From: Gemmatimonadota bacterium
GTDB lineage: Bacteria > Gemmatimonadota > Gemmatimonadetes > Gemmatimonadales > GWC2-71-9
Assembly: GCA_039591615.1 (NCBI GenBank)
Contig: JBDHDH010000024.1
Span: 6,017 to 70,016 of the forward strand
Length of the DNA stretch: 64,000 nucleotides
Reading direction: 5' to 3'
Shown here: one piece after another, positions 26,936-45,251 of the stretch
How positions within the stretch are numbered: position 1 is the stretch's first letter
How the letters are laid out: every line of letters begins with the position of its first letter
Notes under the pieces: generated by a model
Databases searched by the model: none
Seen by the model: the letters and a program-made list of their open reading frames with translations, nothing else
Told to the model about the DNA's origin: nothing
Program-made: the position numbers and the translations under genes

Positions 26936-27454
26936 TTACGGCCGGAAGAGGCGATACATGTTGTACAACTTGGACGCTCGAATCGCCTTGAAGAGCTTTG
27001 CGTCTCTGTAACGGGCATAAATCGTGGCTCGGTATCTCCCAACGGCCCACCGTGTCAGAAAGAAGATCGGGAACGCCAGCGCCATCCAACCTACGAGACT
27101 CCCGAGGACGATGCTGTTATTGAGATTGGTGAGGGCGAGCACCGGGGTGTTGTAGATCGTGCCCCAGAGGCCGTTCAAAGGCGGCACGTCGAGCAGCATG
27201 GTGCGACCGATGGCGTCGAAGACCGGATCCAGGGCAAAGCCAAGGGGGATGCAACAGACCCAGCCGAGCACGGCACCAGGCACCGAGACGTTGAGCACTA
27301 GTACGAGTGACAGGACGAGCACATTGTGCAGGTTCGCGATCGGTGTGAGCCCGACCACCGCACCAAGGGCCATTCCCGCCGCCACCTGGCCCGGCGTCCC
27401 TTCCGAGTTGAGGGCACGGACGAGGCTCTGGATGAGTTTGACGAGCCAGTACAT
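26936..27454 (-). CDS. TIGR03546 family membrane protein
   Basis: LNSEGTPGQVAAGMALG, LTNLNNSIVLGS. Confidence 0.85.
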   Translation of the reverse strand: MYWLVKLIQSLVRALNSEGTPGQVAAGMALGAVVGLTPIANLHNVLVLSLVLVLNVSVPGAVLGWVCCIPLGFALDPVFDAIGRTMLLDVPPLNGLWGTIYNTPVLALTNLNNSIVLGSLVGWMALAFPIFFLTRWAVGRYRATIYARYRDAKLFKAIRASKLYNMYRLFRP

Positions 27455-27492
27455 GGGTCGAATTGTTTGTGAGAAGGGGGCGATTGTCTAGG

Positions 27493-27519
27493 GGGAGTAG
27501 CGGGAGCGGCGGGAGGAGA
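27493..27519 (+). repeat. 9-mer array, left flank of the four-helix-bundle gene
   Basis: GGGAGTAGC GGGAGCGGC GGGAGGAGA. Confidence 0.8.
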
Positions 27520-27532
27520 TCCAGACCGTCAG

Positions 27533-27886
27533 CTACCGACGGCCTCTTTTCAGAAGCGCGAAGACGCCTGCCGTGATCTTCCATCGTAGCTCGTCGACCT
27601 CCCGAAGACTTGTCTCATCGAGCGGGTACAGTGTGGGCAGCGTGCACCTCATGGAGTCTACTTCAGCGGGGCTGGCAAGCGCGTAGTCAAAGAATCTCTT
27701 CATCTCCCGCCGTCCAACACGGGCATTCCCTTCTGCGATGTTGTTCTGCACTGACCAGGCTGCCCTTCTGAGCTGGGGCGTCGCCACTTGAAACTCTGCT
27801 GAAGGGAGTTCATCCGTAACTCGGTAGATGACTCGCACGAGGTCCCCGGCCCGCATCCACACATCGAGCTTCCGGTGGGTGTCCAT
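27533..27886 (-). CDS. Four helix bundle protein (23S rRNA-IVS / Avd-like family)
   Basis: KLDVW..A..L...IY.VT..LP, QLRRAAWSVQNNIAEG, matching consensus QIRRAAxSIxxNIAEG. Confidence 0.88.
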   Translation of the reverse strand: MDTHRKLDVWMRAGDLVRVIYRVTDELPSAEFQVATPQLRRAAWSVQNNIAEGNARVGRREMKRFFDYALASPAEVDSMRCTLPTLYPLDETSLREVDELRWKITAGVFALLKRGRR

Positions 27887-27951
27887 ACTACATCATGGGA
27901 CCGGGTCCTTAAACTCGCGCATCGTTTCGACGCCGTTACGGACCAATCCAC

Positions 27952-27978
27952 GCTACTCCCGCTACTCCCGCCGATCCC
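27952..27978 (-). repeat. 9-mer array, right flank, inverted relative to the left
   Basis: GCTACTCCC GCTACTCCC GCCGATCCC. Confidence 0.8.
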
Positions 27979-27993
27979 TGCTAAATTCCCCCC

Positions 27994-30213
27994 ATGCCGA
28001 CCAGATCTCTCGACCCCATTCTCCGACCGGAGTCCATCGCGCTCATCGGCGCGTCGCGGCAACCGAACACCATCGGCTGGCATATCCTGGACAACCTGCT
28101 GAAGCATGGATTCCAGGGACCCGTCTATCCGGTCAATCCTCACGCCACCGCCATTCACTCGGTGCCGGCATACCCGTCCATTGCCGCCGTTCCCGGGCCG
28201 GTGGATCTGGCCGTGATCGCGGTCCCCAAGGAGTACGTCCTGGAGGTCTCGCGCCAATGCCTCGATGCCGGGGTCCGCGGCCTCGTGGTGATCTCGGCGG
28301 GTTTCAAGGAGGTGGGAGGCGCGGGTATCGAGCGGGAACGCGAGCTCATGGAGGTGATCCACTCGTCGGGCGTGCGTCTCGTTGGACCCAACTGCCTCGG
28401 CGTGATCAACACCGAGCCGGCGGTCGGCATGAACGCGTCCTTCGCCCCGACCATGCCACCGCCGGGACCGGTGGGGTTTATCAGCCAGTCGGGCGCGATG
28501 GGATTGAGCGTACTCGACTATGCACAGAGTCTCGGAATCGGGATCTCGATGTTCGTTTCGTCGGGCAACAAAGCGGACGTGAGCGGGAACGATCTCTTGG
28601 AGTACTGGCGGGACGATCCGAACACATCCGTCATGCTCATGTACATCGAGAGCTTCGGAAACCCTGCCCGATTCGTGGAGCTTGCGCGCAGCATCACGCA
28701 GGAGAAGCCCATCTGCGTCGTGAAGTCGGGTCGCACCGGTGCCGGCCAGCGAGCGGCCGCCTCACACACCGGGGCCCTCGGAGGGACCGAGCTCGCCACG
28801 GACGCCATCATTGCGCAGGCGGGGGCGATTCGTGTTCAGACGGTCGGCGAGCTGTTCGACCTCGCGATGGCATTCTCGAACCAGCCACTGCCAGCCGGCA
28901 ACCGGGTGGCCATCGTGACCAACGCGGGCGGTCCGGGCATCATGCTGGCCGATGCGTGCGAGTCCCAAGGCCTGGAGGTGCCCGCCCTGGCATCCGAAAC
29001 CGAACACGAGCTGCGGTCCAAGCTCCCGGAAGAAGCGAGTGTCAAGAACCCGGTCGATCTCATCGCCAGCGCCACGCCGCAGAGTTACGAGTTTGCCCTC
29101 GAGTGGGTATTCGACGATCCGAACGTCGATGCTGCTATTGCCGCCTTCGTTCCGCCTCTCGGCATCCAAGCCAGGGACGTGGCCGAGGCGATCGTCCGCG
29201 TGAACAGGAAGCATCCGGAGAAGCCACTCCTCGCGGTGTTGATGGGTCGCGAAGGCGTGCCAGCCGGCATGGCGGAGCTGCATGAAGCGCGCGTTCCCGC
29301 ATACATCTTTCCAGAGTCTGCCGCTCGGGCGCTGGGGGCGATGTGGCGACAGCGTCAGCGGACCGAGCGGCCGATGGGAGCGTTCGTCGAATTCGACACT
29401 GACGACGCCACCGTCACCGCAATCATCAACGACACCCTCGACGACGGACGCGCCAAGCTCTCGGAGCCGGACGCGATGCGATTGCTGGAGGCCTACGGCA
29501 TCGCCATGCTACCATGGGAGTTCGTGTCGAAGGAGGGGCCGGCGAGCCTTGCCGCAGGAGCGGCGGCAGCGGCGTCCCGCATCGGGCTGCCCGTCGCCAT
29601 CAAGATCGTGAGCCCGGACATCGTCCACAAAACCGACGTAGGCGGCGTGCAACTCGGCCTCCAGACCAAAACCGAGGTGGAGCGAGCCGTCCGGGCCATG
29701 ATACGACGGGTGACGGAAGCCAGGGAGGGCGGAGCGGAAAGCGAAGCGTGGGACGTAACGACGGGGGACACAGGCTCTGCCGTCAATCACCCAGGCTCCG
29801 CCTCGCCCCGAGAGCCCCGGATCAGCGGTGTCCTGGTCCAGCAAATGGGGGATGGTGGGACCGAGACGATCGTCGGGCTCACCCGCGTGCCCGGTGTAGG
29901 CCCGCTGGTGATGTTCGGGCTCGGCGGGATCTACGTGGAGGTGATGCGGGACGTCGTCCTCCGTCTATCCCCCCTGCGCGACAGCGACGCCAGTGAGATG
30001 GTGGGCACCGTCCGACTCCGCCAACTCCTAGAGGGTGTCCGCGGACAGCCACCGCGTGACGTGGCGGCCATCGCCCAGGCGATCCTCCGCCTCTCGCAGC
30101 TGGCGCAACGCCATCCGCGCATTCGAGAAATGGACATCAACCCGCTCTTGGCCCTCGAGCACGGAACGGTGGCAATCGACGCGAGAGTGCAGTTGGAAGA
30201 GGGCGGCCAATGA
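27994..30213 (+). CDS. Acetate--CoA ligase family (ADP-forming; CoA-binding + ATP-grasp)
   Basis: SIALIGAS, VGPNCLG, SQSGA, SGNKADV, KSGRT..GQRAAASHTGAL, HKTDVGGV, EMDINPL. Confidence 0.93.
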   Translation: MPTRSLDPILRPESIALIGASRQPNTIGWHILDNLLKHGFQGPVYPVNPHATAIHSVPAYPSIAAVPGPVDLAVIAVPKEYVLEVSRQCLDAGVRGLVVISAGFKEVGGAGIERERELMEVIHSSGVRLVGPNCLGVINTEPAVGMNASFAPTMPPPGPVGFISQSGAMGLSVLDYAQSLGIGISMFVSSGNKADVSGNDLLEYWRDDPNTSVMLMYIESFGNPARFVELARSITQEKPICVVKSGRTGAGQRAAASHTGALGGTELATDAIIAQAGAIRVQTVGELFDLAMAFSNQPLPAGNRVAIVTNAGGPGIMLADACESQGLEVPALASETEHELRSKLPEEASVKNPVDLIASATPQSYEFALEWVFDDPNVDAAIAAFVPPLGIQARDVAEAIVRVNRKHPEKPLLAVLMGREGVPAGMAELHEARVPAYIFPESAARALGAMWRQRQRTERPMGAFVEFDTDDATVTAIINDTLDDGRAKLSEPDAMRLLEAYGIAMLPWEFVSKEGPASLAAGAAAAASRIGLPVAIKIVSPDIVHKTDVGGVQLGLQTKTEVERAVRAMIRRVTEAREGGAESEAWDVTTGDTGSAVNHPGSASPREPRISGVLVQQMGDGGTETIVGLTRVPGVGPLVMFGLGGIYVEVMRDVVLRLSPLRDSDASEMVGTVRLRQLLEGVRGQPPRDVAAIAQAILRLSQLAQRHPRIREMDINPLLALEHGTVAIDARVQLEEGGQ

Positions 30214-43314: not shown

Positions 43315-44580
43315 TCAACCGATCTCGATCCGGAGTGCCGCATGCGCATCGCGCAACGCTCTCTCCACCGCCATGGGCCCTTCGGCACGGGCGAAGATGA
43401 AGCCGAGATATCGGGATTCCTCGGGTAGCGGCACGAGGCGCTGGCCGCGGTGGGCGGTGATGATGACGTCGGTCACATAGCGGACCGCAAAGGCCTCCTC
43501 GAGACCGCGGACCTCGCGGAGTACCCCGGCCTGCGGGATGGGGATCATCATCACGCCTGCGGCCGGCTCTTCGCGTGGTGGAATCATCTCGAGTCGGTTC
43601 AGAGCCTGGGCGAGCACGAGCTCCTCGAGCGAGATCGCGGCGTCGGGCCCAAAGCGGAGCACCTGGCCGCACTTTCCACCGATGGGGCGCGCGGCGAGCT
43701 CGATGAGCCACGGGCCCTCTTCGTTGTAGCGAAGCTCGCAGTGAATCGGGCCCCGTTCGAGACCCAATGCATGAACCGCCTCTTGGGCCGTCTGCACGAG
43801 GGCATTCCGTTCTTCCCGAGAGAAACGGGAAGGGGTGACGTAGATCGTCTCCTCGAAGAACGGTCCATCCAGCGGATCCGGCTTGTCGAAGAGGGCCAAG
43901 ACATGGAGCCGCCCGTCCCTGAGCAGGCCTTCCAGCGCGAACTCCGGGCCTGGCACGAATCGCTCGACCAAGTATTCCCGCTTCCTCTCCCGCTCCTGCC
44001 ACTCCTCTCGCTTGCGCCTCTCGTGCCTTTCCCGGCTCTCCTTCTCCAGAATTGCCGCCAATCGCTCATGAGCCACATGGAACTCGTCGGGGTTGTTGGC
44101 TCGCATCACACCGCGGCTGGCGTTCAGCGACGTGGGCTTGATCACACACGGATACGCGACGGCGTGTGCGACGGCGTCGACAGGATCGCCCATCGAGCAC
44201 AGGACGAACTCGGGCATCGGAACACCACGCTCCCGCAGCATGCACCGCTGGAGGTGCTTGTTCCGAGCGGCCTCCATGGCCTTCACCGGATTGTGCGACA
44301 AACCGAGGGCCTCACTCACGACCGTGGCCACGAGGGCGGTGTCGTCGTCGACGCCAAACACGGCGTGAATGGGGCGGTCTGAAGCGAAGTGCACCACCTT
44401 GGCTGCCGCACGTTCGGGTGCCGCAAAATCCAGGGTCACCAAGCCGGCCGGCTCGTCTCCCGAAAACGCGCTGTCTTCCTCCGACGCGACCGTGAGATCG
44501 ACCTCGAGGCGCCGTGCGGCCTCGACGAAGGCTTCGGTTCTATAGGTGGTGGTCGGAAGAAGTAGCAGCAGGCGGGGCAT
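43315..44580 (-). CDS. ATP-grasp domain protein (L-amino-acid ligase-like)
   Basis: ARNKHLQR, YPCVIKP...ASRGV, LVERFVPGPEFALEG, IELAARPIGG; likely start MPRLLLLLPT at 44580. Confidence 0.85.
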   Translation of the reverse strand: MPRLLLLLPTTTYRTEAFVEAARRLEVDLTVASEEDSAFSGDEPAGLVTLDFAAPERAAAKVVHFASDRPIHAVFGVDDDTALVATVVSEALGLSHNPVKAMEAARNKHLQRCMLRERGVPMPEFVLCSMGDPVDAVAHAVAYPCVIKPTSLNASRGVMRANNPDEFHVAHERLAAILEKESRERHERRKREEWQERERKREYLVERFVPGPEFALEGLLRDGRLHVLALFDKPDPLDGPFFEETIYVTPSRFSREERNALVQTAQEAVHALGLERGPIHCELRYNEEGPWLIELAARPIGGKCGQVLRFGPDAAISLEELVLAQALNRLEMIPPREEPAAGVMMIPIPQAGVLREVRGLEEAFAVRYVTDVIITAHRGQRLVPLPEESRYLGFIFARAEGPMAVERALRDAHAALRIEIG

Positions 44581-44589
44581 AGGGTGAGT

Positions 44590-44623
44590 GAGGAGCGGGA
44601 GCAGCCGGAGAAGCGGGAGTGAG
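44590..44623 (+). repeat. 9-mer array, intergenic
   Basis: GAGGAGC GGGAGCAGC CGGAGAAGC GGGAGTGAG. Confidence 0.6.
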
Positions 44624-44657
44624 CTGGCATCAACCTGATGCCTCCCGCCGTTCCGAC

Positions 44658-45251
44658 CTACTTCGTTCCTGCCGTGAAATACGGATTGGTCCCCGCCGAG
44701 TGGTCCGTGATGTCTCTGATCCCTCTGAGCGACGGGAATTGGCGCCGGAGCGCTGCCTCGATGCCCTGCCGCAATGTGACGTTCGCCATCCCGCACCCCT
44801 GACATCCACCCATCATCCGCACGACGACCGTCGCGTCCTGCACATCGATGAGCTCGACCTTGCCGCCATGTTGTGCCACGACCGGGTTGATCTCCGCATC
44901 GAAGATCTCGCTGACGACGTCGAAGAGGTCATCATCTGAAAGAGAAGCGGGAGCAGCGGGAGGAGCGGGAGAAACAGGCAGCCGGGCGGCCGCCTCGATG
45001 GCGTAGCGAATCTGGGCCTCGAGGGCGTCCCATGGCCGGGTGCCGTCCTGTACCGCCGTCACCACGTTGCCCGAAACCACTACCTCGCAGATCCCGGGCA
45101 CCTCGAGGATGGCTTGTGCCACCGGCGAGTCTCCGGCCTCCGCAGCGGAAGTGAACTGCCGCACACCGCGCGCATGGACAGCACGGTCCAGGATGAACTT
45201 GCAGCGGTGAGCGTCAACGGGCTCGGCAGTTACATGAACGGGCGTGGTCAT
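44658..45251 (-). CDS. NfuA/NifU-type Fe-S scaffold (Nfu_N + NifU-C)
   Basis: SPVAQAIL.VPGI..V N-terminal domain; EINPVVAQHGG.V, GGCQGCGMA..TL..GIE; ATG 45251. Confidence 0.88.
   Translation of the reverse strand: MTTPVHVTAEPVDAHRCKFILDRAVHARGVRQFTSAAEAGDSPVAQAILEVPGICEVVVSGNVVTAVQDGTRPWDALEAQIRYAIEAAARLPVSPAPPAAPASLSDDDLFDVVSEIFDAEINPVVAQHGGKVELIDVQDATVVVRMMGGCQGCGMANVTLRQGIEAALRRQFPSLRGIRDITDHSAGTNPYFTAGTK

Follow-up and report, generated by a model that had tools for sequence, protein, structure and literature searches.

Positions 27493-27978 of the 64-kb window (the whole stretch of DNA analysed, C24:6017-70016 of the source genome, G000) hold a 486-nt cassette, in which a gene for a small four-helix-bundle protein of the PF05635/TIGR02436 family is enclosed by two inverted arrays of three 9-mers each. 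We refer to the arrays as the 5' and 3' arms, by their position relative to the gene. Comparison with related genomes shows that gene and arms were inserted as a unit between two back-to-back promoters in the ancestor of the genus, and that inheritance has been vertical since then, the cassette being intact in G000 and decaying in both sister species. It also shows that the arms stay complementary and in period while the sequence of their unit turns over. We consider it probable that the locus is one copy of a type of PF05635 cassette with inverted short-tandem-repeat arms, from a sub-lineage with period 9 instead of the usual 7, and that arms and protein act in the way proposed below.

Insertion of gene and arms as one unit

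The cassette lies between divergently transcribed genes for a TIGR03546 membrane protein and an acyl-CoA ligase. The pair is kept in four other genera of the family, where the interval between the two genes measures 60, 76, 119 and 163 nt and carries neither arrays nor a four-helix-bundle gene. Within the genus, it measures 539 nt in G000, 616 nt in G002 and 219 nt in G001. The motifs present in the empty sites, TTGTCTAG and GCTA(G/A)ATT (the latter just before the ATG of the CoA-ligase gene), abut the outer ends of the arms. Thus, the arms are the termini of the inserted segment. An earlier description made from the letters alone (here the sequence-only reading) had suggested that the gene and its inverted micro-arrays form one unit, and that this interval should be compared in relatives for an empty site. 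The suggestion is borne out by the empty sites of the four genera, by the terminal position of the arms in the insert, and by three different loci of one protein lineage that all have 9-mer arms (see below).

In G002, the gene occupies the corresponding position and strand and has a frameshift around codon 60. In G001, only the last 26 codons (…LRRRINAGIFALLRGDIGKRR*) are left, on the opposite strand and between intact arms. Such an orientation would follow from a recombination event between the arms that flipped the loop, with most of the loop lost afterwards. For G001, inversion of the entire intergenic region was considered and rejected, given that the flank on the CoA-ligase side is ancestral by comparison with the other genera and that the flank on the TIGR03546 side looks like that gene's own -10 region. 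The comparison of G000 with G002 gives a saturated dS and a dN/dS of 0.12-0.22; therefore, the insertion is old and the protein has mostly been under purifying selection since. All three species keep complementary 9-mer arms (duplexes of -53 to -96 kcal/mol, z -2.5 to -7.1), with units that differ by species: GGGAGTAGC in G000 and GGCAGGAGR in the sister species.

Scanning with the single protein, across one genome for each species, yielded only four loci. It added two close relatives of the protein (58-60% amino acid identity, within 58-67% for the closest relatives), in metagenome-assembled genomes of other Gemmatimonadota. One (L179) is located between an extracytoplasmic function (ECF) sigma/anti-sigma pair and uppS, and the other (L180) is a pseudogene that follows a gene for a Zn-dependent dehydrogenase. 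Both have arms of period 9 (GGCAGAGGA and GGAGGGGAA, respectively) that are G-first, i.e., with a G-rich 5' arm. The lineage therefore comprises five members at three genomic sites, two of them intact and three decayed. Its arms all have a best period of 9 (10/10), and the arm-arm duplexes range from -53 to -99 kcal/mol (z -2.5 to -7.1).

Recurrence of armed cassettes and the period of their arms

In the G000 assembly (4.53 Mb, 64% GC, 95% complete), we counted 141 period-7 and 68 period-9 arrays with three or more copies. Strict GGGA[GT]N4 arrays of at least three units number 25, mostly intergenic, versus 0 in a reversed-sequence control. In a genome so rich in short tandem arrays, one flanked gene could be a coincidence, and it is recurrence that decides. 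We scored arms as the best local alignment of the left flank with the reverse complement of the right flank, using 807 control genes (95th percentile 25, 99th percentile 32) and, as a second control, 29 TIGR03546 loci of the same relatives. Seven PF05635 matches were identified in G000, and 6 of these have inverted flanking arms that score above the 95th percentile (binomial probability ~1e-7), with a different unit each time. Heptamer arms flank other copies of the family in this genome: the units are GCAGAGG/CCTCTGC over ~130 nt at C27, GAGCAGT at C18, GGCGATT at C21 and ACCCGGN at C107, and C7 has a 9-mer, GAGGGCGAT. The locus in the window scores 28, only about the 97th percentile of the control genes.

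The source's order yielded 145 PF05635 loci in 50 genomes, 141 of them with enough flank for scoring. Arms above the 95th percentile were found at 130 of the 141, and above the 99th at 120, the latter compared with none of the 29 TIGR03546 control loci. The sequence-only reading had asked whether other four-helix-bundle genes lack such flanks, which would count against it; they have them, at 6/7 loci of the genome and 120/141 of the order. Sorted by period, the armed loci (this one included) comprise 46 of period 7, 21 of period 8, 3 of period 9, 3 of period 10 and 1 of period 11, together with 45 inverted repeats that lack a simple period.

The geometry of the 120 armed cassettes relative to the gene is regular. 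The medians put the beginning of the 3' arm at the stop codon (-2.5 nt), the end of the 5' arm 83 nt ahead of the start, and the total span at 550 nt. In 91 cassettes, the 5' arm is the G-rich one whichever strand is read (G-first), while 4 are C-first and 25 are neutral. The cassette in the window has the features of the type: a PF05635 gene, both arms, a 3' arm at the stop codon, a length of ~0.5 kb, and absence from the corresponding sites of relatives.

Arm period is distributed unevenly over the protein phylogeny. On a tree of 125 proteins it changes 12 times, versus 21.6 +/- 1.4 in shuffles (minimum 16 of 500). The gene in the window falls in a 37-member clade (local support 93) with arms of period 8, 9, 10 or complex, and only one member of period 7; elsewhere on the tree, period 7 predominates. 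The rule also holds within genomes that have cassettes of both kinds. Flanks shared across genera are common among the cassettes (129 locus pairs), so a second comparison left out syntenic and same-genus pairs. Here, 49 of 61 nearest remaining neighbours agreed in period class; in 1000 shuffles, this number averaged 32 and reached at most 47. The tree is short (128 alignment columns) and poorly resolved, so the association is a strong lead and no proof. As such, it suggests that arm period is heritable and goes with the protein clade, non-syntenic loci included. This would be expected if gene and arms travel together, and equally if the protein reads the phase of the repeats. Residues that distinguish the proteins of period-7 cassettes from those of period 8 and above (58, 63, 101, 109 and others) were set aside as inseparable from phylogeny.

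Several other copies show particular features. The heptamer cassette at C107:4543-4860 (L001) lies between genes for a TolC-like protein and a response regulator. Its flanks are homologous to those of cassettes in six other genera (L038, L071, L075, L081, L140, L150), and the 7-mer unit differs each time; either the cassettes are orthologous and very old, or the site is a hot spot for insertion. The C-terminal tail of the L001 open reading frame (ORF) is translated from the 3' arm. At C7:52774-54183 (L007), a four-helix-bundle gene is represented by its N-terminal half, which follows the 9-mer array GAGGGCGAT and continues in frame into a recQ helicase ORF. One genome, G043, has an eight-copy sub-family (including L065, L079, L080, L087, L105 and L122) whose arms are long (45-77 nt), non-periodic inverted repeats, partly kept between copies. 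Recent transposition was ruled out for these copies, which share only 65-72% nucleotide identity. PF05635 genes occur in 6 of 15 genomes from other classes (G061-G079), compared with 50 of 61 in the source's order, and half of the 20 matches in those classes have internal stops. Within the source's class, the closed 4.64-Mb genome G057 has three cassettes.

Organization of the locus and its protein

The gene (27533-27886, minus strand; stop codon 27533-27535, ATG 27884-27886) is separated by a 13-nt spacer (27520-27532, minus strand) from the 3' arm (27493-27519, minus strand), which reads GGGAGTAGC GGGAGCGGC GGGAGGAGA on the plus strand and is C-rich on the gene strand. On the other side, a 65-nt spacer (27887-27951, minus strand) leads from the 5' arm to the ATG. 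The 5' arm (27952-27978, minus strand) is G-rich on the gene strand, where it reads GGGATCGGC GGGAGTAGC GGGAGTAGC; the array is also written as GCTACTCCC GCTACTCCC GCCGATCCC. The best self-period is 9 in both arms (0.72 for the 3' and 0.83 for the 5' arm). In register, the arms match at 20 of 27 positions, and a repeat search aligns them over 26 nt at 77%, or over 19 nt at 89% if shifted by one unit. For a 516-nt RNA of the gene strand, the minimum free energy structure and the centroid structure are both predicted to be closed by the arm-arm stem. Repeat search, fold and duplex energy thus agree on terminal inverted repeats that enclose the ORF in a stem, as in the intervening sequences (IVSs) of 23S rRNA. 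The layout given in the sequence-only reading (three 9-mers 13 nt past the stop, three inverted units 65 nt before the start, 20/27 matches) is confirmed by the coordinates, and its pairing of a G-rich upstream with a C-rich downstream arm, leaving the ORF in a loop, agrees with the predicted fold. A search of positions 27000-28400 against Rfam gave no rRNA match; a sub-threshold snoRNA match was dismissed.

The gene encodes a protein of 117 amino acids with a net charge of +4. It matches PF05635 (23S_rRNA_IVP) with 71.4 bits (cut-off 33.8) and TIGR02436 (four helix bundle protein) with 64.4 bits (cut-off 24), so that the family assignment made from the letters holds. The AlphaFold (AF2) model has a pLDDT of 93.8 and in a Foldseek search superposes best on Xanthomonas XCC0516 (2GSC; TM score 0.95, root-mean-square deviation 1.0), a protein that phmmer also recovers (E 3e-15). 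The superposition is looser for BT_0352 (2RLD) and for Avd, the accessory protein of diversity-generating retroelements (DGRs; 8UB7 and 4DWL, TM score 0.75-0.84 and probability 1.00, but E 0.06-0.2 and identity 10-12%). A sequence profile recovers 2GSC and 2RLD, and even a profile search found no sequence-level match to Avd chains. The Avd-like fold that had been proposed for the protein is thus supported, by comparison of the predicted structure alone. The 2GSC and 2RLD entries have five chains each, and by analogy with 2GSC and Avd the protein is probably pentameric.

To the left of the cassette is the gene for the TIGR03546/DUF2062 membrane protein (26936-27454, minus strand), identified by profile matches. 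A sigma-70-like promoter of its operon (27462-27490, minus strand; TAGACA-17-AACAAT, 7 nt before the ATG) is situated directly outside the 3' arm, and its -35 box is TTGTCTAG, the motif kept in empty sites. To the right, the divergent gene for an ADP-forming acyl-CoA ligase-type protein (27994-30213, plus strand; CoA_binding, Succ_CoA_lig and ATP-grasp_5 domains) is preceded by a conserved flank directly outside the 5' arm (27979-27993, plus strand), which the alignment of filled and empty sites identifies as TGCTAAATTCCCCCC (GCTAGATT / GCTAAATT in relatives), with a -10-like box before the ATG. In the window and at four related loci (L012, L013, L015, L018), the leaders of the two host genes are 6-8 nt long after -10-like boxes (AACAAT, TAAATT/TAGATT). 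This spacing suggests that the transcripts of both genes are near-leaderless in the lineage.

Gene-less hairpins formed by inverted 7- or 9-mer arrays are also present in G000. We identified about 19, with loops of 14-145 nt, and most are G-first. Four-helix-bundle remnants were sought in the loops of 21 array hairpins of G000, with nothing convincing found; the best match, in C76 (E 6e-5, uncorrected for the 143 queries), coincides in part with the repeats and was discarded. Because the loops have no detectable gene remnants, descent of the empty hairpins from cassettes, or of cassettes from the hairpins, is unproven in either direction. The idea that gene-less hairpins elsewhere in the window are empty versions of the cassette stands in part: the window has none of this type and some of its arrays are coding, while the genome has the ~19 noted above and the G001 locus is decaying towards one.

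Other arrays were noted along the way. An inverted pair at 43976/44590 in the window has one arm inside a coding region and was judged to be due to chance. Direct 9-mer arrays of the GAGAAGCGG type occur in the window at 44590-44619, immediately before the start of an ATP-grasp gene, and at 44942-44975, where the array encodes a Pro/Ala linker in a NifU-like protein. On C162 (2178-2214 and 4221-4257), identical 9-mer arrays with ~60 nt of identical flank lie in direct orientation 2 kb apart around two genes, and represent either a duplication or an assembly artefact. On C155 (3694-4717), AGAGGGC heptamer arrays occupy three successive intergenic spots, and the last inverted pair encloses an apparent C-terminal fragment of an outer-membrane beta-barrel gene, with no four-helix-bundle gene.

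Proposed mechanism, alternatives and significance

We propose that the arms are the cassette's own cis elements, forming a stem of ~27-35 bp that would close the gene into a loop, and that the small basic protein may bind the phased repeats of its own cassette, as RNA or as DNA. Such binding would account for the correspondence between repeat period and protein subfamily. With G-first polarity, a transcript that starts inside the cassette would leave with an unpaired C-rich tail, whereas a read-through transcript would pair both arms. This polarity could insulate the cassette from its neighbours, via Rho-type termination or R-loop effects. Insertion would occur without a transposase, reverse transcriptase or RNase III encoded by the cassette. 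A broader version of the proposal, to which we give only tentative credence, is that PF05635 proteins in general are period-specific readers of their own arms (7-nt or 8-10-nt), that gene plus arms constitute an autonomous hairpin element able to spread and persist with none of these three enzymes, and that the IVSs of 23S rRNA are copies that landed in rRNA.

Several observations weigh against the cassette reading. No promoter or conserved motif was recognised in the 65-nt 5' spacer, which leaves the gene without a recognised promoter. The branch of the protein is long, its family score is low, and it may itself be drifting; the arms of G000 are the weakest of their lineage (z -2.5). About one third of the armed cassettes lack a simple period, so a phased repeat is not obligatory. 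The link between period and clade could be simple co-descent, with the period kept by replication slippage. No target-site duplication is visible between filled and empty sites, near-identical copies of the cassette were found nowhere, and no polymorphic empty allele was seen within a species; mobility is consequently deduced from deep comparisons only. For the possible mobile cassette of the sequence-only reading, recent movement is not supported, given the lack of near-identical copies, the saturated dS, and the fixation of the gene at this site in the three species of the genus. As the units differ among all 7 copies in G000, there is no shared terminal inverted repeat that, with a target-site duplication, would define a transposon or a miniature inverted-repeat transposable element (MITE).

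The main rival to the cassette reading treats the hairpin as the selfish element and the gene as its passenger. The palindrome, similar to a repetitive extragenic palindrome (REP) or MITE, would maintain itself, host replication and repair enzymes moving or generating it in trans, gene and arms would not interact, and the association of period with clade would be only co-descent. We regard this as rather unlikely. In its favour, array hairpins without a gene outnumber those with one in G000 (~19 vs 7), the arms outlive the gene in G001, arm units differ between copies of one genome (evidence against a single sequence-specific enzyme), a period is conserved by slippage alone, and inverted heptamer pairs with no linked gene occur in Xanthomonas (PMC4692102). 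A passenger, however, would not be expected to be so exclusive: 85-92% of the PF05635 genes of the order are located between such arms, while only two other, unrelated coding sequences so bracketed were found in G000 (on C155 and C4). The protein was under selection while in the loop (dN/dS 0.12-0.22), the placing of the arms around the ORF is fixed (stop codon for the 3' arm, ~80 nt upstream for the 5' arm), and the hairpin loops have no detectable gene remnants. A chance juxtaposition, in which two of the many intergenic 7- or 9-nt arrays happen to flank the gene in opposite orientation, draws on the abundance of such arrays (141 and 68 with at least three copies), on their presence beside or inside unrelated genes (e.g., the NifU-like gene, window 44590-44975) and on the modest score of this locus (~97th percentile). 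It is refuted by the recurrence statistics (6/7 loci armed in the genome, 120/141 in the order), and the array-free empty sites of other genera and the 9-mer arms at three loci of one lineage also speak against it; we give it practically no weight.

Two further readings derive from known systems. If the cassette were an IVS-type RNA element, a host transcript would contain both arms in paired form, and RNase III cleavage of this stem would excise the gene-bearing loop. Consistent with this are the closing of the predicted gene-strand fold by the arm stem and an architecture like that of the Coxiella IVS (428 nt, 28-bp terminal stem, ORF of the same family, heptamers 5'), for which RNase III cleavage has been shown (PMC4990558). 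The enzyme, however, is lacking: a PF14622 profile search of G000 gave no match, PF00636 had no match in 21 genomes of the order, and a six-frame search for an ERLEFLGD-type RNase III motif found none. Across the phylum, PF14622 was found in 0 of 66 genomes of the class (8 of them closed), versus 14 of 15 genomes of the other classes. Arms flank 9 of 13 PF05635 genes in the RNase III-positive classes and are thus independent of the enzyme, occurring both with and without it. The cassette is situated between two divergent promoters, where no host transcript needs to cross it, and not in helix 9, 25 or 45 of 23S rRNA. RNase III excision, as put forward in the sequence-only reading, is therefore largely refuted, and we consider an IVS-type element very improbable. 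We know of no discussion of the missing enzyme, as a literature search on RNase III absence in Gemmatimonadota returned nothing relevant. The fold likeness to Avd (8UB7, 4DWL; TM score 0.75-0.84) could alternatively mark the cassette as a remnant of a DGR, whose Avd works with a reverse transcriptase. No RVT_1 domain (PF00078) was found anywhere in the 95%-complete assembly, which excludes such a role in G000 and extends the earlier remark that no transposase or reverse transcriptase is nearby; no repeats resembling template and variable repeats (TR/VR) were seen, and Avd is not recovered by profile (identity 10-12%). We rejected this possibility, to which we assign a negligible probability, on architecture and on the absent reverse transcriptase. 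An integron attC site and a CRISPR were also rejected on architecture, with no integrase search made.

Returning to the cassette reading, the nearest known systems share some of its features and differ in others. ORF-bearing IVSs of 23S rRNA occur in Leptospira as well as in Coxiella burnetii. The C. burnetii IVS, which encodes S23p, is 428 nt long and has a ~28-bp stem and heptamers 5' of the ORF, and its cleavage by RNase III has been demonstrated experimentally (Warrier et al. 2016, PMC4990558). The cassette resembles it in having the same family in the loop, in size (486 nt), in stem length and in tandem repeats on the 5' side of the ORF; in both, the ORF is prone to decay, and horizontal acquisition was followed by vertical inheritance. 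Unlike that IVS, the cassette lies between protein-coding genes and not in an rRNA helix, its period is 9 instead of 7, both of its arms consist of repeats, and its host class lacks RNase III, with no host transcript that has to cross it.

G-rich heptamers, GGGAATC in Xanthomonas and GGGGAYT in Nostoc, form many convergent inverted pairs (Rehm et al. 2015, PMC4692102). The 70-75 such pairs per Xanthomonas genome are potential stem-loops, and the heptamers are read as G-quadruplex formers, with no four-helix-bundle genes in the text (PMC4692102). Like the arms, they are intergenic G-rich tandem repeats with GGG tracts and variable copy number, of a type that is kept between species while sequence and length vary, and Xanthomonas (X. 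campestris) is also the source of 2GSC, the closest solved structure. A quadruplex-forming heptamer would have a 7-nt unit with GGG, preferably in at least four units; the cassette instead has a 9-nt unit in three copies per arm, and its three GGG tracts per arm are one short of a canonical intramolecular quadruplex. DGR Avd (4DWL; ribonucleoprotein complex 8UB7) shares the four-helix-bundle fold, small size and basic character, and related structures have five chains. The cassette differs from the DGR system in lacking reverse transcriptase, TR and VR, in having no detectable sequence similarity to Avd, and in its repeat-armed context. REP/RAYT and Ssn GIY-YIG systems similarly have a small gene bracketed by inverted repeats and many gene-less hairpins in the genome, but the PF05635 protein has no nuclease or transposase fold and the sequence of the arm micro-arrays differs in each copy.

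The locus is a nonamer variant of a cassette type that has been published only for 23S rRNA intervening sequences. Published accounts hold two separate pieces of it, the Coxiella IVS with its heptamers and the unexplained inverted heptamer pairs of Xanthomonas (PMC4692102). Literature searches on TIGR02436, and on the family together with heptanucleotide or tandem repeats, found nothing relevant.

The large "23S rRNA intervening-sequence protein" family has, to our knowledge, remained without a known function since the 1990s, and intergenic tandem repeats of 7-9 nt in bacteria are a separate, unexplained feature. The locus and its relatives tie the two together, in that nearly every gene of the family in one order lies inside a repeat stem whose period goes with the subfamily of the protein. 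This provides a testable candidate ligand for the protein, namely its own arms. The class in which this occurs lacks RNase III, which removes the only demonstrated mechanism for such elements; therefore, the arms must do something else. The class includes closed genomes that are open to bench tests.

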